This document shows positions 6,926 through 64,000 of a DNA stretch of 64,000 nt, piece after piece. Positions within the stretch are counted from its first letter, which is position 1. Every line of letters starts with the position of its first letter. The stretch is from a virus, in IMG/VR virus record IMGVR_UViG_3300022744_000001, positions 130,022-194,021 of that record; one strand, written 5' to 3'. The position numbers and the translations under genes were made by a program. The notes beneath the pieces are model-generated. The model was not told where the DNA came from. It searched no databases and worked only from the letters and a program-made list of their open reading frames with translations.

Positions 6926-7225
6926 ATGGCCAAGCCGATCACTCCAAAGGAAGTTCAGGACCTCAAGAACGCAACCTTTCCTGATGAGGTAATCGAGGTT
7001 TTCAACGAGTTGATCGTGGAAAACTGGGATGGGCACAGCGCCACCATCAAGCAAGATGTGGCGGCAGGGCGGATTGCCAAGCGGATGAAGATCACGCGAG
7101 CCAAGGTTTTTGACCGAAGCCTTCTCGACATAGAAGACGTGTTTCAAAAGGCAGGCTGGAAAGTCGATTACGACAAGCCTGGGTACAACGAAACCTACGA
7201 CGCATTTTTCCGATTCACGAAATGA
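6926..7225 (+). CDS. hypothetical protein
   Basis: TTCGGTGTCATGTGGGGCATG motif at the start; 99 aa. Confidence 0.65.
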   Translation: MAKPITPKEVQDLKNATFPDEVIEVFNELIVENWDGHSATIKQDVAAGRIAKRMKITRAKVFDRSLLDIEDVFQKAGWKVDYDKPGYNETYDAFFRFTK

Positions 7226-7252
7226 ACCCGGTGACCAGGTGTTAACCTCGGC

Positions 7253-7453
7253 ATGGACGACGGTGCAAAGGTCATTCTAGCCATTGTGCTCATGATTTTG
7301 GTGGGTGTTGCCTGCTGCTATGATCGCGCGCAGAACGAACAGGTGGAAAAGGCTTGTGTTCAGAAGCATTGCGCGGACGGGTCACACCCTGAGTGGTATC
7401 AGCCGTACAGGAGCCGGGGAATCTGCATTTGCCCGGGCGTTCTTGAGCCTTGA
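7253..7453 (+). CDS. small membrane/Cys-rich protein
   Basis: One transmembrane segment followed by a CC...C..HC...CIC cluster. Confidence 0.4.
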   Translation: MDDGAKVILAIVLMILVGVACCYDRAQNEQVEKACVQKHCADGSHPEWYQPYRSRGICICPGVLEP

Positions 7454-7470
7454 GGTGTACTAGGGGCATG
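7448..7470 (+). promoter_or_regulatory. start-proximal promoter-like motif (class 1)
   Basis: GAGGTGTACTAGGGGCATG; identical 19-mer core to the one at 35833..35853. Confidence 0.45.
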
Positions 7471-7746
7471 AGGAAACTTCTGCTCTTGCTCTCCCTCACT
7501 GCTTGCGCGGTAGACCCCGTAGAAACCAGGATCACGAGCAACCCGAACGTATCGGTTGCTCTGCTCTTCGAACATGAAGGGTGCCGGGTCTACCGGTTCT
7601 ATGACAACGGGGCGTCGCGTTACTACGCCAAGTGCCAGGGCGGGACTGCGACGGTCATGCATCAGGTCCAGAGTGGAGAGAACAACACGCGACCGGAGGA
7701 AATCACCACGGTCAACGTGGTGCCCCCGCATCAGGACGAGCCATGA
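7468..7746 (+). CDS. putative lipoprotein
   Basis: GAGGTGTACTAGGGGCATG motif; N-terminal MRKLLLLLSLTAC signal with lipobox. Confidence 0.6.
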   Translation: MRKLLLLLSLTACAVDPVETRITSNPNVSVALLFEHEGCRVYRFYDNGASRYYAKCQGGTATVMHQVQSGENNTRPEEITTVNVVPPHQDEP

Positions 7747-7958
7747 AGATTGGGGACAAGGTCTCGGCGACCCTCACGGTCACCGTGGACAGCGGCCCTA
7801 TCGGCGACTCCATTGCGGAGGAAACCTACGAAGGGATCGTCACGCAAACGGGTCGGGCCAAGTGCTTCATCGAGATCATGAAGGGGCCGAAAGACGGCGT
7901 TTACATGGTCGGTGAGGTTGGCGGTTTCGAAATGTCCCGCGTTCGCTTACGGAAGTGA
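7743..7958 (+). CDS. small hypothetical protein
   Basis: Start overlaps the previous stop (ATGA); 71 aa. Confidence 0.5.
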   Translation: MKIGDKVSATLTVTVDSGPIGDSIAEETYEGIVTQTGRAKCFIEIMKGPKDGVYMVGEVGGFEMSRVRLRK

Positions 7959-7977
7959 CTTCCGGTGTAAGCGGGGC

Positions 7978-8547
7978 ATGGATTTCAACGGCTACAAGCT
8001 GACTCGCTCCGACGCTCCCTCATGCTGGAGCAAGGGCGGGAACGGGCACCTGGTGCTCCCTCTCACGGGAGAGCATTTCGTTCGGCTCATCCACTACACG
8101 GACTGCCCGTTCCCGCATCTCGAGGTTTGCGGCCTTGGGGGCGAGGTTCTTGGCTGGTGCCGGATCGGCAAGGATGCGGTCGCTTGGGACAAGGCCCAAC
8201 GGTTGGTTGAGCTTCGGCTCTCTCGTGGAGATGGGCCTCGGGACCTGGCCAACTGGCTCGACGCGTTTCGTGTCCAAGACAGGCGGCCGAGCGATACCCC
8301 AAACGATTTGGTTCGAATTCGCCAGACGGTCGAATCTGTGCTGGGGTCGATGCACTACCTGGTCAAGGCAGTCAAGGACGCAGAAGTCGTCGTCGAATCG
8401 GTGGGGAGAAGGCTGAGCGACGTCACCACAATCAACGTGCACCTGGGCAACTTGAAGTCAAAGGTGTCCCGGTTGCGCGACCTCACCGGGGCGGCTGACT
8501 ATGTGGATCTGGAAGAGAAGCCGCCGACCCAGCCTGACCTTGCGTAG
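7978..8547 (+). CDS. hypothetical protein
   Basis: CCGGTGTAAGCGGGGCATG motif at the start; 189 aa. Confidence 0.65.
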   Translation: MDFNGYKLTRSDAPSCWSKGGNGHLVLPLTGEHFVRLIHYTDCPFPHLEVCGLGGEVLGWCRIGKDAVAWDKAQRLVELRLSRGDGPRDLANWLDAFRVQDRRPSDTPNDLVRIRQTVESVLGSMHYLVKAVKDAEVVVESVGRRLSDVTTINVHLGNLKSKVSRLRDLTGAADYVDLEEKPPTQPDLA

Positions 8548-8728
8548 CTGCCCAAGCACGAACATCGTCGATGGCTGCTTCCACGTGCCCTTGGGCGGCC
8601 CTCAAGTGGGCTTTGAACCCCTCTTCGGTTTCAGCTCCCTCCGCTGCCTGAATGCTTTCGCGGATCTTCTCAACCTTTTCCAGGATGAGATCGCACAGGG
8701 TGCCCTTTGGGGCCGTTGAATTCTCCAT
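8483..8728 (-). CDS. small hypothetical protein
   Basis: Internal start MENSTAP...; helical and charged. Its start sits only a few nt from the start of the divergent RHH gene. Confidence 0.3.
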   Translation of the reverse strand: MENSTAPKGTLCDLILEKVEKIRESIQAAEGAETEEGFKAHLRAAQGHVEAAIDDVRAWAATQGQAGSAASLPDPHSQPPR

Positions 8729-8731
8729 GGT

Positions 8732-8965
8732 TTGTCGCATACCATGGTGGCTATGGCGCGACAACCCACAGCAGTACGGGCAGAAACCCTTTTCAAACCC
8801 TCCGTGCACCGTCGATTCAAGGCGGCGGCCAAGCGCCACAACATCTCGGTGGCTGAGGCTCTTCGGTGCGCGGCCGAGCACTGGTTGCTGTTGGACGAGG
8901 TGGAGCACGAGGACGCCCAGCAACAGGCCCGTTATGTGCGGGCCAGGGAACGGAAGCGGAAGTGA
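8732..8965 (+). CDS. ribbon-helix-helix (CopG/Arc-like) DNA-binding protein
   Basis: KPSVHRRFKAAAKRHNISVAEALRCAAEHWL fits the beta-strand/helix/helix RHH pattern. Confidence 0.55.
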   Translation: MSHTMVAMARQPTAVRAETLFKPSVHRRFKAAAKRHNISVAEALRCAAEHWLLLDEVEHEDAQQQARYVRARERKRK

Positions 8966-9008
8966 CCTTCCCCGAGCTGGCCCTAAACCACTTGTAGGTG
9001 GTGTCGGT

Positions 9009-9605
9009 ATGCTCCTTCGGATCGCTCAACGTTTTCTCGAGGCCCGGTCGCTCGATTGGAAACGGTTCAAGGCCCTTGAGACCCCAGATGAGATGATCGC
9101 GTTCTGCATCGAGCAGGGCTTGCGACCCATGGGGGAGTCGAACCGGGTCGTGTTCGCGCTCAACTCTTCCAAGGTGCTGAAAATCGCAAAGCGTGACGCG
9201 TTGGGGCGTGACCAGAACCTGTCCGAGGCCAAGATCGCCAGCGACTCTCAGGCGGCCCCCGTGCTCACGAAGGTATTCGATTATGACCCGGAAGGCTGGT
9301 GGCTTGTAGCGGAGCTTGTGCGGCCCCTCAAGAGCGTCAAAGAGTGGCAGCAGATGATGGGCGGCGTGGAGCACTTGACTCCAAGAGTGCTCTACTCGTT
9401 GGCCCTACGAAATTTCCACCCGAACTACGTGACTGACACGGAGAAGAAAGAGCTGGCTTTCCCACGCGTGCAAAAGCTCGTTGAGCCTTTCACTGTTGTG
9501 GTGCGCAAACATCTTGTTCAAGAGCTAGGGAGCTACGACCACTGGGGCAAAACGTCCGATGGGCGGCTCGTGGTTCTCGACTACGGCTACCAGTTTAGCG
9601 GCTAG
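9009..9605 (+). CDS. hypothetical protein with protein-kinase-like motifs
   Basis: VLKIAK (VAIK-like), HPNY (catalytic-loop-like) and VVLDYGY (DFG-like) in 198 aa; shortened GGTGTCGGTATG motif at the start. Confidence 0.6.
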   Translation: MLLRIAQRFLEARSLDWKRFKALETPDEMIAFCIEQGLRPMGESNRVVFALNSSKVLKIAKRDALGRDQNLSEAKIASDSQAAPVLTKVFDYDPEGWWLVAELVRPLKSVKEWQQMMGGVEHLTPRVLYSLALRNFHPNYVTDTEKKELAFPRVQKLVEPFTVVVRKHLVQELGSYDHWGKTSDGRLVVLDYGYQFSG

Positions 9606-29617: not shown

Positions 29618-31306
29618 ATGGCATCGAGACTAACACCCCTGACCAAAGGCATCATTGGCGCCGTTCTTTTCGGCGGGATGGCCTACGGGTACATGCACCT
29701 GAAGAAGAACGGCACCATCCCCGCGAGCCCCGAGGCCGCGGAGGCTGCCAACAACGCCAGTGGCGGGGGAGAGGCGTTCCCGGCCCTTGGCGGCGGAGGC
29801 GGCGGCAACAAAGCCTTCCTGAGCGACGTAGGCACCATGGCGAACCCCCTCACGGTGAGCCTGGTGGAGTTCCAGGGGTACGCAGGCTTGCTCGCTGCGA
29901 ACGGTGGCTCCCTGGTCACCCAGCCGGGCTCCATCATGGCGGAGAAGGGAGTCTACGTGAAGGCCATCCTCCAGAACGACGTCCCGGCCCTGCCCGCCCT
30001 GTTTGGCTCGGGCATCGCCCACTGCGCGTGGCGAACCTCGGACTTCTGGGCTCAGGAGCAGCCGAACGTTCGCACGGCGGGCTTCGACGGCCGCGGCATC
30101 GTGATCGTGGACAACACCCAAGGTGCGGACGCGATCATCGCCAAAGACCCCGCGATTCGTAGCGTCGAGGACTTGGCAGGGCACACCGTGGGCCTCTTGG
30201 AGTTCACCCCGTCCCACGGCCTTCTGCTCTACGCCCTCGAGAATTCGAGCCTCAGCGCCCGGAAGCAAGCATCGGTCAAGGTCATCCCCACCAACATCGA
30301 TGAGGGGCTCGCTGGGGTCCGCGCCCAGCTCGAGAGCAGCAACGTGGATGCCGTGGTGCTCTGGGACCCGGAGCTGTCCGTGGCTCTGGAGACCATCCCC
30401 GGTGCCCACGTGGTCTATTCGACCAAGGACGCCAGCTCGCTCATCTACGACGTCATGGTATGCGACAACCGAATCGTGTCGGACAAGGCCAACGACGACG
30501 TCCTGACCGCTTTCGTGGATGGCTGGCTCGAGGGCAACAAGCGGGTCAATGCCAACCCGAAGCTCGGCACCCAGGCGCTCGTCGCCAACGAGGAGATGTA
30601 CAAGCTCCTGGCTGGAAAGAAGAGCCCCGAGTTCATCACGCACCTGTTCAAAAACCTGGTGCTCACCAACCTGACGGACAACGTGCGCATCCTCGGCTTG
30701 GCAGGAGACACAAACCAGTACGAGAACGTCTATGCCATGTTCGATCGCATCTACCGCGGCACGAAACGCACGCTGAAGGACCAGAACGCACCGATCATTC
30801 AGCCGAGCAACTCGTTCGAGTACAAGTACATCAAGAGGTTGCAGGCGAAGGACTCGTCCGTGACGGCCGCGGCTCAGAAGCCGGAGTTCGTGTTCACGGC
30901 AAGCGAGGCCCAGGTGGCGGCCAAGAAGGCCCCCGTGCTCACCAAGCCGGTCGAGATCAACTTCGCCACCAACAGCACGGAGTTGACCAAGGACGGTGAG
31001 AACGTCATCGACAACGACCTCATGCCGATCCTCCAGAGCAACAGCTCGGCCTACGTGCGCGTCAGTGGCAACACGGACTCGACGGGCTCCGCCGCGGTCA
31101 ACCATCGCATCTCCTACGGCCGCGCCAACGTCGTGGTGAAGTACATGGTCGAGCAGTGGGGTATCAGCCACGACCGTTTCCTGGTCGAAGGTAACGGCCC
31201 GGATAAACCCCTCTGCAACGAGCTGAGCCCCGAAGACGGCCTCTCCCTTGAGCAGTGCCGTGCCCGTAACCGCACAACCCGAGTAGCTGTCCTCCCAAGA
31301 GAATGA
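29618..31306 (+). CDS. ABC transporter substrate-binding protein (NMT1/SsuA-like) fused to a C-terminal OmpA/MotB-like domain
   Basis: N-terminal TM/signal; SsuA/TauA-like periplasmic binding fold; the C-terminal ...VSGNTDSTGSAAVNHRISYGRANVV...NRTTRVAVL matches the OmpA-C peptidoglycan-binding motif. Confidence 0.8.
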   Translation: MASRLTPLTKGIIGAVLFGGMAYGYMHLKKNGTIPASPEAAEAANNASGGGEAFPALGGGGGGNKAFLSDVGTMANPLTVSLVEFQGYAGLLAANGGSLVTQPGSIMAEKGVYVKAILQNDVPALPALFGSGIAHCAWRTSDFWAQEQPNVRTAGFDGRGIVIVDNTQGADAIIAKDPAIRSVEDLAGHTVGLLEFTPSHGLLLYALENSSLSARKQASVKVIPTNIDEGLAGVRAQLESSNVDAVVLWDPELSVALETIPGAHVVYSTKDASSLIYDVMVCDNRIVSDKANDDVLTAFVDGWLEGNKRVNANPKLGTQALVANEEMYKLLAGKKSPEFITHLFKNLVLTNLTDNVRILGLAGDTNQYENVYAMFDRIYRGTKRTLKDQNAPIIQPSNSFEYKYIKRLQAKDSSVTAAAQKPEFVFTASEAQVAAKKAPVLTKPVEINFATNSTELTKDGENVIDNDLMPILQSNSSAYVRVSGNTDSTGSAAVNHRISYGRANVVVKYMVEQWGISHDRFLVEGNGPDKPLCNELSPEDGLSLEQCRARNRTTRVAVLPRE

Positions 31307-31551
31307 CCGACTGGGAGACAGCCTGGGTTGTCCTTGTGGTGGTGCTTGTGCCGCCGCTCCTGTCCCCCTTCCTGGCAGTCTGGGTGTACCCGATTCAGGC
31401 GGGGTTGTACCTGCCGTTTTGCGCGCTGCTCTACCTGGTCAGTCGGAAGGGTCGAGATAGTCGAGAGAGGTTTACCCAGGGGTTCTGTGTTGCAGTTTTC
31501 GTAGCCCAAATAGCGGGCTTCGTTCTTTACCTAGCCGCGCACATCGAATGA
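31303..31551 (+). CDS. small membrane protein
   Basis: Two TM segments. Confidence 0.45.
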   Translation: MTDWETAWVVLVVVLVPPLLSPFLAVWVYPIQAGLYLPFCALLYLVSRKGRDSRERFTQGFCVAVFVAQIAGFVLYLAAHIE

Positions 31552-31557
31552 GGAGTC

Positions 31558-32343
31558 ATGTGGAATCCGTATAAATCGCTGCCCGCCACGACGGGGAACG
31601 CTTTGAGTGTAGGGTCGGTTGCTGTGGTGCTCTTGGTCTGGTCGCTGCTGAGCGGCTTGGACATTGTGCCGCCCTCCAAGCTCCCGTCGCCCTGGGAGAC
31701 CGCACAGGCTCTTGTTCACTTGGCTTGGGACGGCAAGGAGAGCTTGCTCGGGCAAGCCATCCTGGCCTCGGTCATGCGCATCGTGTGGGCCAGCATCTTC
31801 GTGTTCGTCATCGGCATCATCTTCGGCGTGGGAATGGGGGCTTCCCCGGTCATCAATGCGATCATCTCGCCCCTCATTGACCCGTTTCGTTCTGCCCCGG
31901 TGGCGGCGCTTCTGCCCATCCTGATCATGTGGTTTGGCATCGGCGAGACCATGAAAGTCGTGTTCCTGTACATCGGCGCCGTGGTCTACTTCATCCCCAT
32001 GGTTCGGGATGCGGTTCGTAGCGTCCCACAGAACTACTGGATCAGTGCCTACGACTTGAACGCAACGAAGTTCGAGTCGGTGATGAAAGGCGTGGTCCCC
32101 CTGGCCAAACCCCGTATCGCGGATGCCTTCGTGGCGGCAGTGTCCATCGAGTGGACGTACATCACGGTGGCGGAGTTCGTGAATGCGCAATCCGGGCTCG
32201 GCCAGATCATCTCGAATGCGAAGCGGTTCTCAGCGATGGACAGCATCTTTGCCACCATCGGCGTGATCATCGCGCTCGCCCTCATCACCTACCACGGCAT
32301 GATGGCGATCAAAAAGAACCTCTACCCCTGGGAAGTCGAGTAG
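31558..32343 (+). CDS. ABC transporter permease (SsuC/TauC/NrtB-type)
   Basis: Six TM helices with a BPD-type permease loop. Confidence 0.85.
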   Translation: MWNPYKSLPATTGNALSVGSVAVVLLVWSLLSGLDIVPPSKLPSPWETAQALVHLAWDGKESLLGQAILASVMRIVWASIFVFVIGIIFGVGMGASPVINAIISPLIDPFRSAPVAALLPILIMWFGIGETMKVVFLYIGAVVYFIPMVRDAVRSVPQNYWISAYDLNATKFESVMKGVVPLAKPRIADAFVAAVSIEWTYITVAEFVNAQSGLGQIISNAKRFSAMDSIFATIGVIIALALITYHGMMAIKKNLYPWEVE

Positions 32344-32345
32344 CC

Positions 32346-32684
32346 ATGGAAGTTCGCCTTCGAAGGGATACCTCCCGACCTACCGAGTACATGATGCGCT
32401 GGCTTGGTGCTGTAGCGGCCCTCCACGCGTTTCGGGAGCACCAGGACCGAACCAAGCGGCCCACTGCATGGTCGCATCACGATACTTTGGCTCTCATCGC
32501 CACGAATGTTCGCAAGCATATGACCGACCCGAGATGGTTTCTCCGGCCCACGGAGGAAGACATCACGAAGGTCATCGCGTACGGGCACGAGAACTTTCGC
32601 GAATACCTCAGTGATGGGTTGAGAGACCTGAACCAACTTCAAACCTTCTTTGATCTTCTCAACCAGGACGCCGTGGCATCATGA
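32346..32684 (+). CDS. hypothetical protein inside the ABC operon
   Basis: 113 aa between the permease and ATPase genes. Confidence 0.5.
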   Translation: MEVRLRRDTSRPTEYMMRWLGAVAALHAFREHQDRTKRPTAWSHHDTLALIATNVRKHMTDPRWFLRPTEEDITKVIAYGHENFREYLSDGLRDLNQLQTFFDLLNQDAVAS

Positions 32685-33544
32685 GTGAAAACACGAAATA
32701 CCCCATGCTTGTCCTTGACAAGATCACGCAGGACTTCCCTTCCCCAGAGGGTCCGGTACGAGTTCTCGACGACATTTCACTCGCCTTCGACGGTCCTGGG
32801 ATGAACATGCTCATGGGGCCCTCGGGCTCGGGCAAGTCCACGCTCATGCGGCTCATGGGCGGCGTGCGCATTCCTTTCGACGTGAAGTGCCCGACGTCCG
32901 GCCGAATCTTCATCGACGGCAAGGAAGTGGGAGACGACCAGCACGACGACGTGGTGACCGTCTTCCAAGCGTACAACAACCGGCCCGACCTCACTGTGTT
33001 CGAGAACGTCATGTTCCCGTTCACCCTGAAATACTGGCGAAAGAAGGTCTCCAAGGAAGAGGCCAAGAAGCGGGTGACCGACATACTCGAGGTCGTGGGT
33101 CTGGCGGACAAGGCCAAGCTCCGGCCCGCGGCCCTCAGCGGCGGCCAGAAGCAGCGTGTGGCCATCGCTCGAGCCCTGGCCCTCCGCCCCCGCATCCTGC
33201 TCATGGACGAACCTTTCGGCGCGCTCGACGCCCAGACCCGGGCGGACCTGCAACGGTTCATGGTCAAGATGCACAAGGAATACCCGTGCCTCACCATCTT
33301 CGTGACCCATGACGTCACGGAGGCCATCACGTTGGGGGATCGGATCATCGTGCTCTCTGCTCGACCGGCACGCATTGCAGAGCAGATCGTGGTCGCCCAA
33401 CCCCAAGACCAGCGGGCGGAATGGCTGCACTCGGCGGAGGCCAAGCTGTACGAACAGCAGATCATCCAGGTCTTGCAGAACACGAAAAGCCCTGGCCAGG
33501 TTCGTGTCAGCGTCGGCGTGAGCCCCGCTCCGGCAACCCCGTGA
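32681..33544 (+). CDS. ABC transporter ATP-binding protein
   Basis: Walker A GPSGSGKST, signature LSGGQKQR, Walker B ILLMDEP, H-loop VTHD. Confidence 0.9.
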   Translation: MSENTKYPMLVLDKITQDFPSPEGPVRVLDDISLAFDGPGMNMLMGPSGSGKSTLMRLMGGVRIPFDVKCPTSGRIFIDGKEVGDDQHDDVVTVFQAYNNRPDLTVFENVMFPFTLKYWRKKVSKEEAKKRVTDILEVVGLADKAKLRPAALSGGQKQRVAIARALALRPRILLMDEPFGALDAQTRADLQRFMVKMHKEYPCLTIFVTHDVTEAITLGDRIIVLSARPARIAEQIVVAQPQDQRAEWLHSAEAKLYEQQIIQVLQNTKSPGQVRVSVGVSPAPATP

Positions 33545-37436: not shown

Positions 37437-37681
37437 CCCCTCGAGAAGAGGCTGAGCGCGACCCCAAGGTGCGGCAGATCTCCCGCATCCTGCTCAGGAT
37501 GTACCTGGGGTATCTGGTGCTGTTCTTGTTGCTGATCTGGCTCAAAGCGTCGCCATGGCTCATCTTGTCCGTGTGCATCTCCGGGCTCATTGCCGCACCG
37601 GTGATGCTGGTCGTCTTTTGGGTCGCGTACCTTGACGCTCGAGCTAGGGTTTCCCGCCGACGACGTGGGCTCGAACCGTGA
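37433..37681 (+). CDS. small membrane protein
   Basis: Start overlaps the previous stop; two TM helices. Confidence 0.5.
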   Translation: MTPREEAERDPKVRQISRILLRMYLGYLVLFLLLIWLKASPWLILSVCISGLIAAPVMLVVFWVAYLDARARVSRRRRGLEP

Positions 37682-38858
37682 TGGGGGCGTCCTCGGGCCC
37701 GCGCCAGTAGGGCTCGATGTGGATGGCCTTCCGGAGGCTGTGATTTGGCCCGTGGGCCTGGAACTTCCAGTGGCCCCGGACCAGGCTTTGGATGGTCGGG
37801 GAGCTTCGGCGCTTGCCTTCCAGGTAGTCGGCGAGGGCAGGCCGCACGTCAAGCTCGATGGGTTTGCCGACCCTAAAAGTCCGGGCGAGGGGCTCCGGGT
37901 TCGTCCGGCCCCCTTCCTTGGGGCTCATCATCGCGCTCTTGTGTTTGCCCACCTGCTTGACGTTGGCGGGGTCGCTCATGGCCAGGCACGTGTTCAAGAC
38001 CAAGCGGGTGAGAAGAACGAGGGTACGAGAGTCCCGGGTGTCGAGGCTCCCTCCCGTCGCTTCGGGGAAGGCTGTGAGGGACTTGTCCGAGGTCATCTCC
38101 CGTACCGGCCATTTGGTGCGGTGCAGGTTCACGGAACGGCTGTGGGCCAAGATGGACCACTTGTCCCCGATGGTAGTCACGTGGATGAAGTCGATGGGCT
38201 CATCCACCCCAGACTCAGAATTCGCAGTGAAAAGAAAGTTGGTTGGTAGGTCGATGATGAACGACGACCATGGAGGCAGGATCTCAACGTCGGGGACCGA
38301 GGTCGCCATGAGAGCAGCGGCGTAGCGGTGACCTCCGAGCTGGAGCACCGGGTAGGCGTTGTGAGCCCACTGGGCGGCCCCCAGCATCAGCTCCTGGCTC
38401 GAGGGGTCCTCCTGGAGCGCTTTGTAGGCCCACGTGGCGTTGACCTGCACCAGCATGTTCAGCATGGCTTTGCCCATGCGAGCGGTGGTGTCGAGGGTGT
38501 CCATGCGGTAGCCGTTGCCGAAGGTGAGAGGCCACCAGTATTGACCCAAACTCATGAGGTAGTCCTTCGTCACTACCGTGGTCCCAGGCGGACCATCCAT
38601 GTACACCAGGGGTTTCCCGCCCTCTGGAGCTGCAATGCACACAGCAAGCTGCGCCATCTCGCGCGCTTTGGCCAGGAAGTCATCCGGCGGCACCAGGCGG
38701 TTTGGGTCGGGGGTTCTCTGCAAAAGAACTTGCCTGACCCGTTCCGGAAGGTCGAGCTTCGCGGCAACAAGGTTCACCAGGTCGAGAAAACTATGCACGT
38801 GCTGTTCCTCGGTGTCAGAGCAAGAGTACACCTGGGGGACGTATGCTGAAGGCGGCAT
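37644..38858 (-). CDS. hypothetical 404-aa protein
   Basis: The largest unassigned ORF; coherent composition; C-terminal VRGHWKFQAHGPNHSLRKAIHIEPYWRGP segment was not recognised. Confidence 0.7.
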   Translation of the reverse strand: MPPSAYVPQVYSCSDTEEQHVHSFLDLVNLVAAKLDLPERVRQVLLQRTPDPNRLVPPDDFLAKAREMAQLAVCIAAPEGGKPLVYMDGPPGTTVVTKDYLMSLGQYWWPLTFGNGYRMDTLDTTARMGKAMLNMLVQVNATWAYKALQEDPSSQELMLGAAQWAHNAYPVLQLGGHRYAAALMATSVPDVEILPPWSSFIIDLPTNFLFTANSESGVDEPIDFIHVTTIGDKWSILAHSRSVNLHRTKWPVREMTSDKSLTAFPEATGGSLDTRDSRTLVLLTRLVLNTCLAMSDPANVKQVGKHKSAMMSPKEGGRTNPEPLARTFRVGKPIELDVRPALADYLEGKRRSSPTIQSLVRGHWKFQAHGPNHSLRKAIHIEPYWRGPEDAPITVRAHVVGGKP

Positions 38859-57893: not shown

Positions 57894-59651
57894 TCAATCC
57901 CAGAGGTTGTTCACCGTGTTGCAGGTAGAGAGAACAACCCACCCGCCTTGCGACGTGATCCAGACCATCCGTGCCGAGGTGTTCGTGCCGATGTCGAGGC
58001 CGTTATTTTGGTTGCTCGTGAATGACACGTACACCAGGTCTGTACCGCTGTTCACGCCGTTCACAATCTCTTTGACTGCGCCGTCCGTACCATCGGCAAG
58101 ATGAGCGTAAGTGGTCCCGCCCGTCGTGTTGATGACGACACAAAACTGCTTCGTTGGGTCGAGGGGGGCCGGGTTCTCGTTGACATTGTTGTCAGTCGTT
58201 AACGTGACGACTTCGAACCCTTTGACCATGGCAGCAAGGTTGTCGAGTGCCTGAGCGACCTGCACTGGTGCGCTGGTGCCCCAGTTGGCGGGAGTCGCCG
58301 GGGTGTACCCGACAAGGTTCGCCTGGTCCAAACGGGTGAGGGTGAGCTGTCCGCTGTGGCCGGGTTGGTTGAGAGAAACTTGGCTTTCAGCGTTGGTCGT
58401 GATGGACAGGTAACCGCTGCCACGGATCGTGTTATCTGCGACCTGGCTGCTTCCGGAAAGGTACAAATCAAGACCGTAAGAGCTGAGTTCAATCAGCTCT
58501 CCATCCGGACTCCCAGACCCCTGAATTGTAGTGTTCTCGAGGTAGACAGTAGCTCCACCTTGACTCAGGTTGATGCCTGCAACACTCGAACCGTTATAAA
58601 ACGCGCAGTTTTTGGCGTAAATATTGCGGCTAAGGGGGGTGTAGGGTGCCGTTGCGCTTACGTTGAAAACGACTGAGAGGTTTTCAACCCTGAGATCTGC
58701 GTCGTTATTGAGCTGAACCCCCTCGTTGAAGATCATAGCGGAATTCAGATTTGGGGCAGCACCCCGGAATGTGATGTTCTGCTGGTCGTAGGTTCCGGCC
58801 GGGACAGCATCGTTGCTGTCGATGACAACCACGCAGGAGCGACCATAATCCTGTGCCGCAGACAGGGCCTCCGCAAGCGTGGGGTATATGTATGGGGCTC
58901 GTGTATTCGAGCGCCAGATAAAGACCGGCTCCGGAACTTGCTCGAGTTGTTCATACGAGAGTTCACCCAAAAACGAGGGTTGACTCGAACTAAACGAACT
59001 GGAGAGATCGACTCGGACAGAAGCGAAGGAAACGTTGTCCCCGGAGAGAATGTCGTAACCCGCGTCGCTTTGCTCAAAGAGCGAAAGAGTTACACCGCCC
59101 TGATTCACTACACGGAAGCAACTGCTGTTGCTGAAACCACCTCCGTAGCAGGTGACCGACAATCCCGCTTCACCAGAGCCATCGATGAGAACGAGGGGAG
59201 CTGAACTTTGGTTGTCAAGGTAGGCGTGATCAAACACCCAGTCCTCGTATACGCCAGCAATGGTGATTGGAGTTCCGTTGCTGGCGCTCTGAAGAGTCAG
59301 GTTTTTGACTGTCCCCAAATGAGTCACGGTTGCTGGGTTGCCCTCAGCGTCTCCGAGAACCAGTCGGTCTCCATTGGTGCGGTACCCACAGAGCGTGACT
59401 CCAGCGAAATCGTACGTCCCCGATCCTGTGGGGGCCCCGCCTTGAATCAAGGAGGTATCGACGTAAATCGTTGCTACCCCGGCTGCCTTCGCTGCGTCAT
59501 ACGCTTCTTGAAAGGTTGCGTAGACGTTGCCCGCGGGGCTTGGCTCGCTGTTTCGGTAGACGAAACTCGATGAGCTGCCCCCACCTCCGCCCCCTTGACC
59601 GATGTTTTTGACGATAGTGCCGAAGCCGTCGTTTTGAATCGCCATGGTCAC
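57894..59651 (-). CDS. tailspike/tail-fibre-like right-handed beta-helix protein (pectate-lyase fold)
   Basis: 585 aa, rich in Asn/Ser/Thr/Gly repeats of ~22 aa as in parallel beta-helix coils; N-terminal Gly-rich linker; local GC is lower than the window. Confidence 0.7.
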   Translation of the reverse strand: MTMAIQNDGFGTIVKNIGQGGGGGGSSSSFVYRNSEPSPAGNVYATFQEAYDAAKAAGVATIYVDTSLIQGGAPTGSGTYDFAGVTLCGYRTNGDRLVLGDAEGNPATVTHLGTVKNLTLQSASNGTPITIAGVYEDWVFDHAYLDNQSSAPLVLIDGSGEAGLSVTCYGGGFSNSSCFRVVNQGGVTLSLFEQSDAGYDILSGDNVSFASVRVDLSSSFSSSQPSFLGELSYEQLEQVPEPVFIWRSNTRAPYIYPTLAEALSAAQDYGRSCVVVIDSNDAVPAGTYDQQNITFRGAAPNLNSAMIFNEGVQLNNDADLRVENLSVVFNVSATAPYTPLSRNIYAKNCAFYNGSSVAGINLSQGGATVYLENTTIQGSGSPDGELIELSSYGLDLYLSGSSQVADNTIRGSGYLSITTNAESQVSLNQPGHSGQLTLTRLDQANLVGYTPATPANWGTSAPVQVAQALDNLAAMVKGFEVVTLTTDNNVNENPAPLDPTKQFCVVINTTGGTTYAHLADGTDGAVKEIVNGVNSGTDLVYVSFTSNQNNGLDIGTNTSARMVWITSQGGWVVLSTCNTVNNLWD

Positions 59652-60091
59652 ACCAGCCTGACGAAAAGGGTTTGAGAGGACGTGAGCGTGTTTCGCACGG
59701 TTGTCGTGGTGAACGTGTTGTTGTGGGAGATATCCACGGTGCCCGTGGCATCTACCCAGGTAGAACCTACTTGCTTCAGCACCAAGACTTGAGGAGGAAG
59801 CCCGAAGCCATGCGAGAGGGTCAGCGTATCCCCTGCACCGCCGTAGGCGTCGAGCGTGTCCTGGTCCTCCAGGGTAACGATGCCCTGGTTCTTCCAGGCA
59901 TGAAGGTCACCCTTGAATGCACTACGAAGCACCTCAGAGGTGTTTGGTAGGTACACGAATTGGCCGGGCGCCAGGTAGCGATCTTCGCCCGCTCGCCCCT
60001 CTACCTGGGATGCATGGGTGATTCGCAGGTCGCGAAGGTAAAGCCTTCTGGTCCCAACGTTGGTGATTTTCACAGGGCCTCCATCCATCAA
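59648..60091 (-). CDS. putative virion/tail-associated protein
   Basis: Immediately upstream of the tailspike gene on the same strand; beta-rich composition. Confidence 0.5.
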   Translation of the reverse strand: MMDGGPVKITNVGTRRLYLRDLRITHASQVEGRAGEDRYLAPGQFVYLPNTSEVLRSAFKGDLHAWKNQGIVTLEDQDTLDAYGGAGDTLTLSHGFGLPPQVLVLKQVGSTWVDATGTVDISHNNTFTTTTVRNTLTSSQTLFVRLV

Positions 60092-60163
60092 AGCCCCAAA
60101 AAAGGATCACCTGCTGAATGAAGGTTCGATTTTTCGGTGTCATTCGCCTATGGAGGCACACAC

Positions 60164-61414
60164 ATGCCGGTAGGCGGTAAAGCAATTGTCTTGGGAGGGG
60201 GCACGTTCTTTCACGTGAGGCCGCATCTGGCCCTAGCCGCCCCCGCATTCGGAACAACGGCGGATCAGATCGGGGCCATGCTCCGGCAAAAGGGGTGGGA
60301 GGACACCACGGTTGTCAAAACCCGCATGGCCGGAGGAGATGCCAGCCTCGTCACGAACAATGACGTGGCCAAACTCCTCAATCTCATCCTGCAAGACCGG
60401 AATGTGAAAGTGCTCGTGATGAACGTAGCGCTGTGCGATTTCGAGGGCTCTATCGCGAACGAGAATGGGCTGACCCTCAGCGGGAAAGACCAACCTCGGC
60501 TCAAGACCTCGGAGGGCGGGCAGGTCATGCAGCTGGTTCCGGCGGACAAGCTCCTGGGCCGCATCCGGAAAGAGCGCAAGGACATTTTCCTGGTCGGGTT
60601 CAAAACGACCGCAGGGGCGAGCTACGAAGAGCAATACCGAGCCGGGCTCGAGCTGCTCAAGAAGTCCTCGTGCAACCTGGTTTTCGCGAACGACGTGCAA
60701 ACCCGCCAGCAAATGATCATCACGCCGGAGCAAGCGATCTACGGCGAATCCATGCACAGGTATGAGGCGCTTGAGCTGCTGGCTCAAATGACCACGGAGC
60801 GCGCCAACCTCACGTTCACCCGTTCCACCGTAGTCGAGGGCAAGGCAGTGCCCTGGAGTGCGACAGAGGTCCCCGCCTCTTTGCGCAAGGTCGTGGACCA
60901 CCTGATCAAGCGAGGGGCCTACAAGCCGTTCCTGGGCTCAACCGTCGGGCACTTCGCGGTGAAGGTGGCCGAGGGCCGGTTCCTCACCTCGATTCGCAAA
61001 TCGAACTTCAACAAGCTGGACGAGACCGGGCTCGTTCTGGTGGAGTCGATGGGCAACGACCGAGTCATCGCCCACGGGGCTCGACCCAGTGTCGGCGGGC
61101 AGTCCCAGCGGCTGATCTTCGGGGATCACCCGGACACCGACTGCATCGTCCACGCACACGTGCCTTTGCGCGACGAGGCCGGGGTCATTCCGATCGTCCC
61201 CCAGCGCCCCTACGAGTGTGGCTCGCACGAATGCGGGAAAAACACGAGCGAAGGTCTCCACGACTTCGGAGGCGGGCTCAAGGCCGTCATGCTAGACCAG
61301 CATGGGCCAAACGTCGTGTTCAATCGCAACATGGACCCCGACCGTGTGATCGAGTTCATCGAGCGAAATTGGGACCTGACCCGAAGCACGGATGGGGTAC
61401 TGACAGCTCCATGA
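60164..61414 (+). CDS. fusion protein: CoaB-like (phosphopantothenate-cysteine ligase fold) N-domain + class II aldolase/adducin-like C-domain
   Basis: N-terminus: GGGTFFHVRP...TTVV and ...IFLVGFKTTAGASYEEQYRAGLELLKKSSCNLVFANDV parallel the CoaB GGT..VR and VGFAAET...LDLICANDV motifs. C-terminus: RPSVGGQSQRLIFGDHPDTDCIVHAHVP parallels the class II aldolase PSSE..H..IY..RPDV.AVVHTHS metal-site motif. Confidence 0.7.
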   Translation: MPVGGKAIVLGGGTFFHVRPHLALAAPAFGTTADQIGAMLRQKGWEDTTVVKTRMAGGDASLVTNNDVAKLLNLILQDRNVKVLVMNVALCDFEGSIANENGLTLSGKDQPRLKTSEGGQVMQLVPADKLLGRIRKERKDIFLVGFKTTAGASYEEQYRAGLELLKKSSCNLVFANDVQTRQQMIITPEQAIYGESMHRYEALELLAQMTTERANLTFTRSTVVEGKAVPWSATEVPASLRKVVDHLIKRGAYKPFLGSTVGHFAVKVAEGRFLTSIRKSNFNKLDETGLVLVESMGNDRVIAHGARPSVGGQSQRLIFGDHPDTDCIVHAHVPLRDEAGVIPIVPQRPYECGSHECGKNTSEGLHDFGGGLKAVMLDQHGPNVVFNRNMDPDRVIEFIERNWDLTRSTDGVLTAP

Positions 61415-61920
61415 AGGACACCTACTGCTCCCATTGTGGCGCTCTCCACCAGGACGATGACGCCTACCCTCGCAAGTGCCGCGAGTGCTTCGAGTACGTC
61501 TATCAGAACCCAACCCCTGTGGTAGTGGTTCTGTTGCCGATTGGGGAAGGGCTTCTGACCGTTCGCCGCGCTATCCCGCCGCAGGTAGGTCAACTCTGCT
61601 TGCCCGGGGGCTTCCAGGACATCGAGACCTGGCGCAACGGGTGCGCGCGAGAACTCAAGGAGGAGGCTGGCATCGTTGTGGACCCGAACGCGATCCAGCT
61701 GTTTCGTGAACCCTGCTCCACTGCTTACTGCGACATTCAGCTCATCTTCGGGCTCGCTCCCGGCTTTGCCTCGGAGGAGGAACTCCGCGCACAGGCCACG
61801 CCCCATGACGACGAAGTTAGTGAGTTGGTCGTGATTTACGAGGACTTTGGGGAGCTAGCGTTCCCCACTCACACGGAGATGGCTCGAGCCTACTTCGAAG
61901 GACGCCTTCAGAAGACGTGA
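61411..61920 (+). CDS. NudC-like Nudix hydrolase with N-terminal Zn-ribbon
   Basis: CSHCG...CREC then the Nudix box GGFQDIETWRNGCARELKEEAGI; ATGA overlap with the upstream gene. Confidence 0.8.
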   Translation: MKDTYCSHCGALHQDDDAYPRKCRECFEYVYQNPTPVVVVLLPIGEGLLTVRRAIPPQVGQLCLPGGFQDIETWRNGCARELKEEAGIVVDPNAIQLFREPCSTAYCDIQLIFGLAPGFASEEELRAQATPHDDEVSELVVIYEDFGELAFPTHTEMARAYFEGRLQKT

Positions 61921-62201
61921 AGTACGACCTGTACCCAGTGTGGATGTGGGTTCACCAGAAAGAGGGGTTCGTTCGAAAAGAGCGCCCTTCAATGGATCCC
62001 TCTAACTGGGCACAGGGGATCGTGTGGTACGAGATTCGCGACACGGAAGGCCGAATCCTGGATTCGCAGTACACCTACGAAAGCGCCATGAAGGCTCTGG
62101 AAACGGTTTTCGAGCTGGATTCAATACTACAGGCGGTGCGAGACCATGCCCGACTTCATCCTGACCCCAACGAAGCTCCTCAATCCGAAGGACATCCGTA
62201 G
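61917..62201 (+). CDS. hypothetical protein
   Basis: GTG start overlapping the Nudix gene's stop. Confidence 0.4.
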   Translation: MKYDLYPVWMWVHQKEGFVRKERPSMDPSNWAQGIVWYEIRDTEGRILDSQYTYESAMKALETVFELDSILQAVRDHARLHPDPNEAPQSEGHP

Positions 62202-62472
62202 CGTAGACCTCTCTCAGCTTGGAGAGGGCTTTGTCCACCTGGAGACGTTCGGGGGCGAGCGCGAGACACTCACGGGGCCCCAGGCCATCGAGGCCGTCAT
62301 GGCTCTTCGCCCCTCCGCGCTCGAGGGCCATCGCCTCAAATGGCCGAGGCACACCTGGGCGCTCCACAACCTGGTCGGGCACCCGCTCATGCAGCTCTTG
62401 GCGTTCGTCAAGCTCTACAAAGCAGCCATGTGGGTGCACGATGTGACTGTCCCGAAACCAAAATCGGTGTAG
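62146..62472 (+). CDS. hypothetical protein
   Basis: 108 aa. Confidence 0.5.
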   Translation: MPDFILTPTKLLNPKDIRSVDLSQLGEGFVHLETFGGERETLTGPQAIEAVMALRPSALEGHRLKWPRHTWALHNLVGHPLMQLLAFVKLYKAAMWVHDVTVPKPKSV

Positions 62473-62481
62473 TTTCCGGGC

Positions 62482-62874
62482 ATGCCAGACACGTTTGACT
62501 TCAAAGCGGGAGACCTCGTTCGAATCGCCGTTCAACCGGCGGACCAACTCGCGCAAATTGTAGGGAAAGTTGGGATCCTCAACGAGGTTGACGAAAGGAG
62601 CGCTTCCATTTCCGCGTTCAACTTGGATGGGCGGGGCAATGGGGCGGGAACCGTCCCCCTTTCCTGCCTGGTCCTCGAGACCCGCCCCGAGTGGGTTCGA
62701 GCCAAGCAACTCCGGGAGGAAGAGCAGGCTCGGTACAATGCTCGAGCGGACGCCGCCGCCGCGAAGTGGGACAAGAGCGTGGATGAGGTAGCCCAGAAAT
62801 ACGGGGTCTCTGCTCTGACCGCCGTGTGCATCTACCAGGACCTCAGCGCGGCCCACCGAGACAGCTGGCGCTAG
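62482..62874 (+). CDS. hypothetical protein
   Basis: ATCGGTGTAGTTTCCGGGCATG motif at the start. Confidence 0.55.
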   Translation: MPDTFDFKAGDLVRIAVQPADQLAQIVGKVGILNEVDERSASISAFNLDGRGNGAGTVPLSCLVLETRPEWVRAKQLREEEQARYNARADAAAAKWDKSVDEVAQKYGVSALTAVCIYQDLSAAHRDSWR

Positions 62875-63221
62875 GGCAGGTCTTCTTCGTTCGAGGCGTC
62901 GGGCAGAACTGTCCATGACCCTTCGAACGAAGAGGCATCGATCTCAACATCCCAGTTGGAGTCCACCCAGTAGATGTGGAATCCGGGCCGGGCAAAATGC
63001 AGGCGTCCCGCGGATGACCAGCGAAACACTAGGTCGCCATCGAGCTGGAATCGTGCGAGAGGGTTCGCTTGCAGGGCGGGCAGTACGCCACCCAGGAACG
63101 ATGTGTCTTCGGGCCAAGGCATACTACAGCGGAGGATAGAAAGACTTTCAATGCTTGATTCCCACCGCGAGATCCAATAGTTTCTAAAGTCAAGGTTGAC
63201 CGCTGGGCTTGAGAGGGCCAT
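62871..63221 (-). CDS. hypothetical protein
   Basis: 116 aa, Trp-rich. Confidence 0.45.
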   Translation of the reverse strand: MALSSPAVNLDFRNYWISRWESSIESLSILRCSMPWPEDTSFLGGVLPALQANPLARFQLDGDLVFRWSSAGRLHFARPGFHIYWVDSNWDVEIDASSFEGSWTVLPDASNEEDLP

Positions 63222-63243
63222 GGAAGCGGCGAGTTAACCTGGG

Positions 63244-63291
63244 GCCCGGGGTAGAGCCTTTCCTACCGGGCCTTTTTTATCGGGGTTCCCA
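63244..63291 (+). terminator. intrinsic terminator
   Basis: GGCCCGGGGTAG-agcctttc-CTACCGGGCC stem-loop followed by TTTTTTAT. Confidence 0.6.
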
Positions 63292-64000
63292 TGAAGCTCC
63301 TGACTCGTGACCAGTTTCGTGACCAGGTATTCGCTCGAGACAGAAACCGTTGTGTTTTCTGCCCTAAACCTGCCGTCGATGCCCACCACATCCTGGAACG
63401 GAGGTTGTGGCCTGATGGGGGTTATTACCTGGACAATGGGGCCTCGGTTTGCGAAGAGCACCACCTGGCTTGCGAGCGTACCGACTTCTCGGTTGAGGAG
63501 GTTCGAAAGGCATGCGGGATCACTCGAGTCGTTCTGCCCCCACACTTGAGCGAGGAGGATGCCTACGACAAGTGGGGCAACCAGGTGCTCCCCAACGGGC
63601 AGCGGCTCCGGGGCGAGCTGTTCCACACGGAGCCCGTCCAGAAGATGCTGGCGGACAAGCTCACGCTGTTCACCCCCTGGGTCAAGTACCCAAGAACATT
63701 GCATTTGCCGTGGTCTCCGGGCCTCAAAGGAGACGACAAACTCATCGACTCCCTGGCTGCCTTTGAGGGCCAGCGGGTCATCGTGACCGAGAAAATGGAT
63801 GGCGAGAACACGACGCTGTACCGCGGCTATATGCATGCTCGGAGCGTCGATGGTCGCCACCACCTCTCACGGGACTGGGTCAAGCAGTTCCACGGGGGCA
63901 TCCAGCATGACATCCCCGAGGGTTGGCGCGTCTGCGGGGAGAACGTCTATGCAGAGCACTCCATCCCCTACTCGGACCTGCGTAGCTACTTCCTCGGCTT
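63291..64000 (+). CDS. HNH domain fused to ATP-dependent RNA ligase-like nucleotidyltransferase (3' end truncated by the window)
   Basis: N-terminal CVFCPKP...DAHHILERR...CEEHH HNH motif; then KYPRTLHLPWSPG and the TEKMDGEN KxDG adenylyltransferase motif I. Confidence 0.7.
   Translation, partial: MKLLTRDQFRDQVFARDRNRCVFCPKPAVDAHHILERRLWPDGGYYLDNGASVCEEHHLACERTDFSVEEVRKACGITRVVLPPHLSEEDAYDKWGNQVLPNGQRLRGELFHTEPVQKMLADKLTLFTPWVKYPRTLHLPWSPGLKGDDKLIDSLAAFEGQRVIVTEKMDGENTTLYRGYMHARSVDGRHHLSRDWVKQFHGGIQHDIPEGWRVCGENVYAEHSIPYSDLRSYFLG

Follow-up and report, generated by a model that had tools for sequence, protein, structure and literature searches.

In a window of 64,000 nucleotides (positions 130,022 to 194,021 of the IMG/VR virus record IMGVR_UViG_3300022744_000001), a gene at 60164..61414 (+) fuses a domain resembling CoaB, the phosphopantothenate-cysteine ligase, to a domain resembling the class II aldolases, and lies upstream of a gene for a small, His-rich protein of 108 aa (62146..62472, +), here called the partner. 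From their gene context, we tentatively assign the fusion and its partner to the nicotinamide adenine dinucleotide (NAD+)/adenosine diphosphate (ADP)-ribose network, as a conserved two-gene metalloenzyme module. In the infecting phage, this module would most likely act on a product of NAD+ breakdown that carries phosphate and ribose, either processing or recycling it. The observations concern folds, conserved residues and gene linkages, and it is from these that we infer every chemical step. Positions are those of the window unless another locus (L followed by a number) is named.

The fusion was recognized by Pfam, by its homologues and by structure prediction. Its reading frame opens at GTG 60137 and closes at 61414; the likely start is ATG 60164, because a Shine–Dalgarno sequence read from the DNA (GGAGG, 60152..60156, +) lies 7 nt ahead of it and homologues begin at the equivalent Met. 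An earlier note on this DNA had described a long open reading frame (ORF) here with a CoaB-like N-terminal and a class II aldolase-like C-terminal half. The ORF is present, with a product of 416 aa, and both assignments hold: Pfam places DFP on residues 6–185 (30.7 bits, cut-off 22) and Aldolase_II on residues 259–334 (32.3 bits, cut-off 22.2), and the AlphaFold model of the monomer is confident (predicted local distance difference test 94.4, predicted template modelling score 0.90). In this model, the two halves are shown as one rigid, predicted two-domain body. Homologues (120 among the matches listed) are 402–591 aa long and 55–70% identical over both halves, and their alignments take in at least 96% of the query. 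Because all 120 span both halves, there is no sign of a hidden frameshift, and two genes joined by a frameshift, a possibility that the same note had raised, are excluded by these homologues together with the confident two-domain model. An alignment of 33 sequences that are 54–70% identical to the window protein (A1) contains 92 invariant residues, including 11 Arg/Lys, 6 His and 2 Cys; with these basic residues and His, the protein would be suited to bind a metal and a polyanionic ligand resembling a nucleotide. Long family representatives (512–600 aa) were considered as carriers of extra domains and proved to be artefacts or insertions only.

The CoaB-like domain (60164..60808, +; residues about 1–215) has the three-layer Rossmann-like fold of the CoaB/DFP family, with CoaB by far the closest fold. 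For residue comparisons, the family profile was aligned to solved structures and invariant columns were read from A1. The invariants of this half are GGT12–14, H21, T53xMA, A89xxD92, R112-L113, K129, R138, FKTTxG and ANDxxTR. The fusion keeps the GGT motif of CoaB strand 1, the AAxxD motif (A89, D92) and ANDV (N176, D177), the residues of the latter two being invariant also in the standalone phage versions of the domain described below. CoaB forms an amide through an acyl-nucleotidylate, and its catalytic Asn and triphosphate loop occupy the region of N210 in the E. coli enzyme. In the fusion both are replaced: 'SITNHSTGHLG' of 2gk4 aligns opposite 'alaapayGkta' of the family profile, with the CoaB Asn becoming a conserved Ala, and 'LAAPAYG' stands where CoaB has its S-S/T-G-x-x-G triphosphate loop. 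In the alignment, the invariant Arg112 of 'PRLxT' takes the place of the Lys in the CoaB K-I-x-K motif (E. coli K289), so that the positive charge is kept and the residue is changed. Scores against the CoaB/CoaBC equivalog models TIGR00521, TIGR02114 and PRK06732 (28.8, 19.7 and 29.5 bits) fall far below their cut-offs (219.7, 217.2 and 265), and together with the loss of the Asn and the Gly-rich loop they rule out a true CoaB. The fusion is only 14–20% identical to CoaB (PF04127 DFP; S. pneumoniae 2gk4, E. coli 1u7z, M. smegmatis 6th2), carries an aldolase-like C-terminal domain instead of the flavoprotein CoaC, and has no genes of the coenzyme A (CoA) pathway as neighbours among the 25 most frequent families of each Pfam tally. 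With the Asn and the Gly-rich loop replaced, the acyl-nucleotidylate ligase chemistry that had been proposed in the earlier note cannot be assumed, and the way in which the domain holds or activates a nucleotide may differ from that of CoaB.

The second half is a metal domain with the class II aldolase fold (60875..61411, +; residues about 238–416). Its His triad, H330/H332/H380, is invariant in the 33 aligned sequences; H330 and H332 align to H92 and H94 of FucA, and H380 was matched to FucA H155 by inspection, via an HG motif. The PSSE motif is replaced by PSVGGQSQR, and the catalytic Glu73 of FucA aligns to the invariant G311, which rules out a true aldolase. Of the residues that form the FucA phosphate pocket (Asn29, Thr43, Gly44, Ser71 and Ser72; roles according to PMC11841055), Ser71 is kept as S309 and T275 lies near Thr43, whereas Asn29 and Ser72 are changed to H263 and V310. 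An invariant ECGSxxCG insert replaces the segment holding Tyr113, which in FucA is contributed by the neighbouring subunit of the homotetramer. The domain, at about 175 aa, is also shorter than the members of the class II aldolase/adducin family (PF00596; FucA, AraD, MtnB, HMPDdc, pyruvic oxime dioxygenase), and it differs from the aldolases in the invariant Gly-Gly at the position of Glu73, in the two pocket substitutions and in the insert. With three His and no sequence-equivalent Glu, it is more like the Fe(II) enzyme pyruvic oxime dioxygenase than like the aldolases. As read from its sequence, the fusion has both folds and fails a defining catalytic feature of each of the two enzyme classes. 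The labels that NCBI attaches to some members, 'class II aldolase/adducin family protein' or 'phosphopantothenoylcysteine decarboxylase', are likely to be functionally wrong.

To place the gene in context, 160 other loci (80 viral and 80 cellular) were scanned by clustering, Pfam tallies and tblastn; gene calls in these loci came from a crude ORF picker that is unreliable in GC-rich DNA, which tblastn was used to offset. The partner, a protein of ~110 aa across the family, lies downstream of the fusion in 53 loci (31 cellular, 22 viral), on the same strand in every one of them; it is present in 52 of the 154 loci that have enough downstream sequence. It follows the fusion within 100 nt in 29 loci and with roughly one gene between in 18, and partner and fusion also occur on the same contigs in the protein database. 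Ten of its residues are invariant (E60, W71, H74, N75, H79, P80, Q83, H98, T101 and P103), and its fold, a small beta-sheet with a helical hairpin, matches no known fold. In the window, a Nudix gene and a further ORF (orf94) are inserted between fusion and partner; in L086, the closest viral relative, a sigma-factor-like gene fills this slot. The earlier note had taken the Nudix gene as the associated gene and overlooked the conserved partner further downstream.

In nine loci from alphaproteobacterial metagenome-assembled genomes (MAGs), the gene between fusion and partner encodes an M23-like protein of ~180 aa with no obvious signal peptide (L024, L036, L042, L048, L052, L053, L060 and L070 are among the loci recorded; about 7224–7770 in most). 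A weak M23-like gene also overlaps the end of a standalone CoaB-like gene in a ~100-kb phage (L170 4606–5280). The recurrence in MAGs and phage is independent, and it is poorly accounted for by any of the explanations given here.

The link to NAD+ comes from gene neighbourhoods. In three Saccharibacteria loci (L056, L077 and L083), the fusion sits among genes for NAD synthase, NrtR (NrtR_WHD, E 2e-28), an isochorismatase-type nicotinamidase, NAPRTase and PnuC; the same clusters hold NadR/NadD-type adenylyltransferases, a second Nudix gene, an ADP-ribosylglycohydrolase and His_Phos_1. The three loci fall into two lineages with fusion proteins that are 61% identical to each other, and L061, a short contig, shows part of the NAD set. 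Around the viral genes, CYTH occurs in 13 loci (with 63–87% identity among the phage proteins, and weakly in 3 Saccharibacteria loci), ADP-ribosylglycohydrolase in 12, His_Phos_1 in 6 (5 scanned viral loci and L003) and metallophosphoesterase in 5, with single cases of Macro, Nudix, Thg1, SpoU methylase and R2K ATP-grasp. Most loci of the candidate phyla radiation (CPR), and 32 cellular loci in all, have a divergently transcribed gene for a TrmB-like helix-turn-helix protein of ~255 aa (weak Pfam TrmB match; for example L067 5084..5851, −), which suggests dedicated regulation by a ligand of this regulator; MaoC follows downstream in 5 CPR loci. The standalone N-terminal domain has a neighbour of the same kind: a DUF4326 gene overlaps it in phage PE09, and two divergent phages of ~100 kb carry DUF4326 in the gene block of this domain, 1.1–1.5 kb upstream of it; the phages with this pairing include cultured and uncultured ones. 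For DUF4326, Iyer et al. (2022, PMC9503650) predict the processing of terminal phosphates that sit on the ribose of ADP-ribose products. It is established that some phages restore NAD+ in the face of defences that deplete it (NARP1–3), and this precedent gives an NAD-linked phage module a selective rationale. The suggestion in the earlier note that the target could be nucleotide-derived, such as an NAD derivative, thus gains contextual support from the NAD salvage clusters of Saccharibacteria and from the NAD/ADP-ribose neighbours in phages.

Several observations weigh against the assignment to the NAD+/ADP-ribose network. The neighbour counts are raw counts, given without a background rate for phage accessory regions. 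Most of the 160 loci have no NAD/ADP-ribose gene within 5–6 kb, and linkage to an NAD cluster is seen in only 3–4 of about 35 Saccharibacteria loci. The phage signal for ADP-ribosylglycohydrolase, CYTH and RNA ligase stems largely from one clade of related phages. An unbiased tally of downstream Pfam families is led in the viral loci by CYTH (8 of 127 ORFs) and in the cellular loci by M23-like (9 of 90 ORFs) and MaoC (5 of 90 ORFs) genes, none with an obvious role in NAD metabolism. No NARP-type gene was found near the fusion in the 80 viral loci by tblastn with NAPRTase, PnuC and NadR (Adps and Nampt were not queried). Finally, RNA ligases, Thg1 and SpoU as neighbours would fit an RNA-centred role equally well.

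Four genes of the window (60164..62472), from the fusion to the partner, are bracketed by copies of an octamer, TCGGTGTM, that occurs 15 times in the window against an expected 4.1 ± 2.0, a number reached in none of 100 shuffles. The copies lie at 897, 6909, 25167(−), 27826, 38809, 39559, 43456, 46691, 48755, 51478, 53454, 57493(−), 60134, 61140(−) and 62464; most of those inspected precede a start codon by 8–25 nt, in many cases with a G-rich stretch and then ATG coming after the octamer. One copy, TCGGTGTC (60134..60141, +), stands 23 nt ahead of ATG 60164, and the motif-bearing start that had been noticed earlier is therefore real and belongs to an enriched element. The next copy, TCGGTGTA (62464..62471, +), stands 10 nt ahead of ATG 62482 and is likely to mark the end of the four-gene unit. 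The octamer looks like a phage-specific promoter or leader element, with the copy at 60134 as a candidate promoter; no sigma-70-like promoter was found in 59600–63300, and terminators are not in excess around the genes. The overlapping ends of the genes (ATGA, GTGA and the 56 nt shared by orf94 and the partner gene), together with the motif at both ends, lead us to read them as one transcription unit.

The second gene of this unit encodes a Zn-ribbon and Nudix hydrolase of 169 aa (61411..61920, +; Pfam NUDIX, E 6e-9). Its ATG at 61411 overlaps the stop codon of the fusion (TGA, 61412–61414), which bears out the ATGA overlap described previously. The Nudix box (GX5EX7REUXEEXGU) is intact in the protein, GGFQDIETWRNGCARELKEEAGI, and a zinc ribbon with the spacing C6-x2-C9, C23-x2-C26 directly precedes the Nudix fold and aligns with NudC (5iw4, 1vk6) and 3cng. 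Structure matches are led by PDB 3cng (E 2.5e-8), with NadM-Nudix and NudC at E about 2e-3. NudC itself has an N-terminal domain and, after the Nudix box, the signature SQPWPFPxS. By inspection, the window protein begins at the Zn ribbon (residue 4) and lacks the N-terminal domain, and the signature is absent from residues 90–169; the score against the NCBIfam NAD(+) diphosphatase model NF001299 is 19.8 bits (cut-off 158). The description 'NudC-like' is thus weak: the Nudix box and the four-Cys zinc motif agree with it, and the family score, the signature and the N-terminal domain do not. A linkage of fusion and Nudix genes across phages is not conserved: tblastn finds a relative of the window Nudix near the fusion in 1 of the 160 other loci, where it lies on the opposite strand, and by this sequence comparison the gene appears as a lineage-specific insertion between fusion and partner. 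The third gene, orf94 (61917..62201, +), begins in a GTGA overlap with the Nudix stop and is called as a gene on the source contig. It has no match in Pfam, PHROG or PADLOC and no tblastn relative in any fetched locus; with no relatives found, its coding status is uncertain, and it may be a lineage-specific gene or not a gene at all. The fusion, partner, Nudix and flanking ORFs have no match in the PADLOC defence library.

Taken in order, the steps that we propose for the module are as follows. The four genes would be co-transcribed from the TCGGTGTM element, as their overlaps and the motif copies at both ends suggest. By homology, the CoaB-like domain would bind a nucleotide moiety through D92, the ribose-binding Asp, and the invariant basic residues. 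The three-His metal site, holding Zn, Fe or Mn, would polarize a carbonyl or enolizable group of a sugar-phosphate-like or acid moiety, so that the aldolase-like domain presumably acts without the canonical Glu base. More speculatively, invariant His, Glu and Asp residues of the partner might complete or regulate the metal site. The Nudix enzyme inserted in this phage could cleave the pyrophosphate of a dinucleotide substrate or product. Beyond these steps, fusion and partner might form the core of an unrecognized route that couples a CoaB-like nucleotide-binding domain to a three-His metal centre, and that either recycles ADP-ribose-type molecules towards NAD+ or destroys an ADP-ribose-derived metabolite or signal. 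Huge phages would use such a route against NAD-depleting immunity, and host-dependent bacteria (Saccharibacteria, other CPR, Bdellovibrionota and Myxococcota) would share it with them for salvage; we regard this wider proposal as doubtful.

The same neighbourhoods have to be weighed for other functions. The fusion could be an accessory of RNA (tRNA) repair or RNA-end processing, acting on an RNA terminus or restoring a damaged or modified nucleotide alongside phage RNA ligases that oppose host anticodon nucleases. Two unrelated types of RNA ligase do flank the fusion, in differing arrangements: an HNH and RNA-ligase gene with an N-terminal HNH-like Cys/His domain, which starts in the window (63291..64000, +) and runs past its end (L001 13128–14141, PF09414), has full-length relatives adjoining the fusion in L086, L139 and L028, and a short, unrelated type adjoins it in 9 viral loci of one clade. 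The CYTH proteins in the 13 viral and, weakly, 3 Saccharibacteria loci have a triphosphatase fold, Thg1 and SpoU methylase each appear once among the downstream genes, and RNA repair is itself linked with the NAD/ADP-ribose network through KptA (PMC9503650). Nevertheless, the RNA-ligase and CYTH signals are largely those of one phage clade, a relative of either ligase lies within 6 kb in only 2 of the 80 cellular loci (L028, 57%; L033, weakly, 28%), no nucleic-acid-binding domain is visible in fusion or partner, and the NAD salvage clusters would be left unexplained; we consider this function unlikely. A role in making or turning over an amide-linked or modified small molecule or nucleotide precursor, with a nucleoside triphosphate-dependent carboxylate-amine ligase working next to a lyase, decarboxylase or oxygenase, would agree with the amide-forming, acyl-nucleotidylate chemistry of CoaB itself, with the M23-like genes that follow the fusion in 9 alphaproteobacterial loci and the standalone domain in L170, and with the amide ligases GSP_synth and R2K ATP-grasp among the neighbours. 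With the CoaB Asn and Gly-rich loop replaced, though, ligase activity is putative; the peptide-related neighbours are few and heterogeneous, and known DNA-hypermodification genes are not seen nearby, which makes such a role decidedly unlikely.

Host-dependent bacteria might instead use the CoaB-like ligase and a decarboxylase-like domain in place of CoaBC, as a non-orthologous salvage of CoA or a pantetheine-type cofactor. CPR and predatory bacteria generally have reduced biosynthetic capacity, and the enrichment of the family in these organisms, the closeness of the fold to CoaB and the MaoC-like genes (acyl-thioester hydratase fold) downstream in 5 CPR loci would all fit. Against this stand the best equivalog scores of 28.8–29.5 bits where 217–265 are required, the lost catalytic Asn, and the absence of CoaA, CoaC, CoaD and CoaE from the neighbourhood tallies (25 most frequent families each); moreover, it is not obvious how a His3-metal aldolase fold could stand in for the flavin-dependent chemistry of CoaC, and the need for such salvage is hard to see in more than 100 large phages and in ~100-kb phages that carry the N-terminal domain only. 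This function is accordingly very unlikely. It is most improbable that the protein binds a nucleotide without catalysis and so sequesters a host immune signal, as a sponge or sensor would, even though the N-terminal domain alone is abundant in small-gene blocks of ~100-kb phages and the catalytic Asn of CoaB is lost: catalysis is favoured by the 92 invariant residues, which include a complete His triad and many polar residues and are shared between phages and bacteria, and in 32 cellular loci the gene is placed like a housekeeping gene and has a regulator of its own, which is unlike a sponge. The assignment that we tentatively prefer remains the NAD+/ADP-ribose network.

The family is abundant. 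A word-indexed search returned at least 3,417 clusters at 90% identity, and an exhaustive search of 1.84 billion 50%-identity representatives gave 300 matches at E ≤ 1e-30, mostly full-length, with a clear subset consisting of the N-terminal domain only and a few entries with the C-terminal domain only. At least 114 IMG/VR contigs carry the fusion, many of them 200–570 kb long, and so does the 595-kb huge phage LR756511. The 448-kb source contig, in which the window spans about 7.1–71.1 kb, has PHROG-only matches and mostly orphan genes, which fits a huge phage. In species genomes of GTDB, a single-sequence query gave nothing, whereas an alignment-based scan found the fusion in at least 99, all MAGs, with some loci on contigs of 0.7–1.4 Mb; the carriers are Saccharibacteria, other CPR, Bdellovibrionales, Micavibrio, Rickettsiales-like bacteria, other Alpha- and Gammaproteobacteria, and Polyangiaceae. 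The claim that no described protein has this architecture can be kept only in part: the literature searched holds no functional description, but the architecture is abundant and already partly labelled, the Joint Genome Institute giving some members both domain names.

The standalone N-terminal domain is a protein of ~200 aa in Otagovirus-like Pseudomonas phages and of about 260 aa in Caulobacter Bertelyvirus phages. These proteins retain all invariants of the domain, are abundant in co-directional blocks of small genes in ~100-kb phages, and show no alternative domain combinations within the N-only subfamily. A 318-aa protein of phage Milchi was examined as a fusion of DUF4326 with the CoaB-like domain and rejected, since a Zn ribbon makes up its extension. 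Such elements are seen repeatedly around the family: besides the ribbon of the window Nudix, a small Zn-ribbon protein is encoded just upstream in the L089 clade (L089 4306..4970), and N-terminal Zn-ribbon extensions are found in the Milchi N-domain protein (L167 6659..7015) and in P0235 (residues 1–122).

Some further features lie outside the module. In L028, a 330-kb contig binned as Pseudobdellovibrionaceae, three tandem paralogous genes of ~200 aa follow the fusion (7249..9169); because this contig carries the HNH and RNA-ligase gene of the window type, it may be a mis-binned phage. Elsewhere in the window, a 404-aa ORF (37644..38858, −; a 384-aa call on the source contig) has an AcrVA2-like, anti-CRISPR-related Pfam match (PF26125), which suggests an accessory or counter-defence character for this stretch of the genome; it also matches PHROG 15934, a family of unassigned function. 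A stretch at 29618..33544 (+) encodes a 562-aa OmpA-domain protein, an ABC-transporter permease (BPD_transp_1) and an ABC ATPase, an unusual set for a phage. No tRNA genes were found in the window.

Bacterial immunity against viruses relies centrally on NAD+ depletion and on signals derived from ADP-ribose, and only three NAD+-restoring phage pathways have so far been described. The conservation of the module, its spread over hundreds of large phages and its place in the NAD clusters of some Saccharibacteria make it a concrete and testable candidate for new NAD/ADP-ribose chemistry. Should the NAD link fail, there would still stand an abundant enzyme family without assigned function, with a CoaB fold minus its Asn and an aldolase fold minus its Glu, and its pairing with a small protein whose fold is unassigned. 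The two folds are each known and their combination in one protein is common, and no characterization of the fusion was found in the literature searched, where neither fusion nor partner is described and 'CoaB' mostly denotes the Pf phage coat protein. Nor was a description found of the combination of an Asn-less CoaB fold with a Glu-less aldolase fold, of the small partner, or of their spread over huge phages and host-dependent or predatory bacteria. Among the closest parallels are NARP1 (Adps and Namat, with an optional phosphatase, Adpp), NARP2 (Nampt and Nmnat) and NARP3 (PnuC and NadR), small operons of phages whose targets are taken to be NAD+ or products of its cleavage; phosphatase, Macro and Nudix accessories recur around them as they do around the fusion. 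Their proteins, by contrast, are not homologous to the fusion or the partner, and an NAD function of the fusion is suggested by context alone; the papers on NARP1, NARP2 and NARP3, on the aRES phosphatase and on RyR domains do not mention it. The surveys of jumbo-phage and viral NAD/ADP-ribose systems that define the NAD+/ADP-ribose conflict network (Iyer, Burroughs, Anantharaman and Aravind; PMC9503650, PMC7824862) nowhere use the words CoaB, DFP or aldolase, and 'pantothen' appears once, in an unrelated reference title of PMC9503650. This network comprises Macro, NADAR, SLOG, Nudix, ARG/ADP-ribosylglycohydrolase and DUF4326, and the ADP-ribosylglycohydrolase, Nudix, Macro, DUF4326 and RNA-ligase neighbours of the fusion and of its N-terminal domain are drawn from the same set, to which fusion and partner would be additions.

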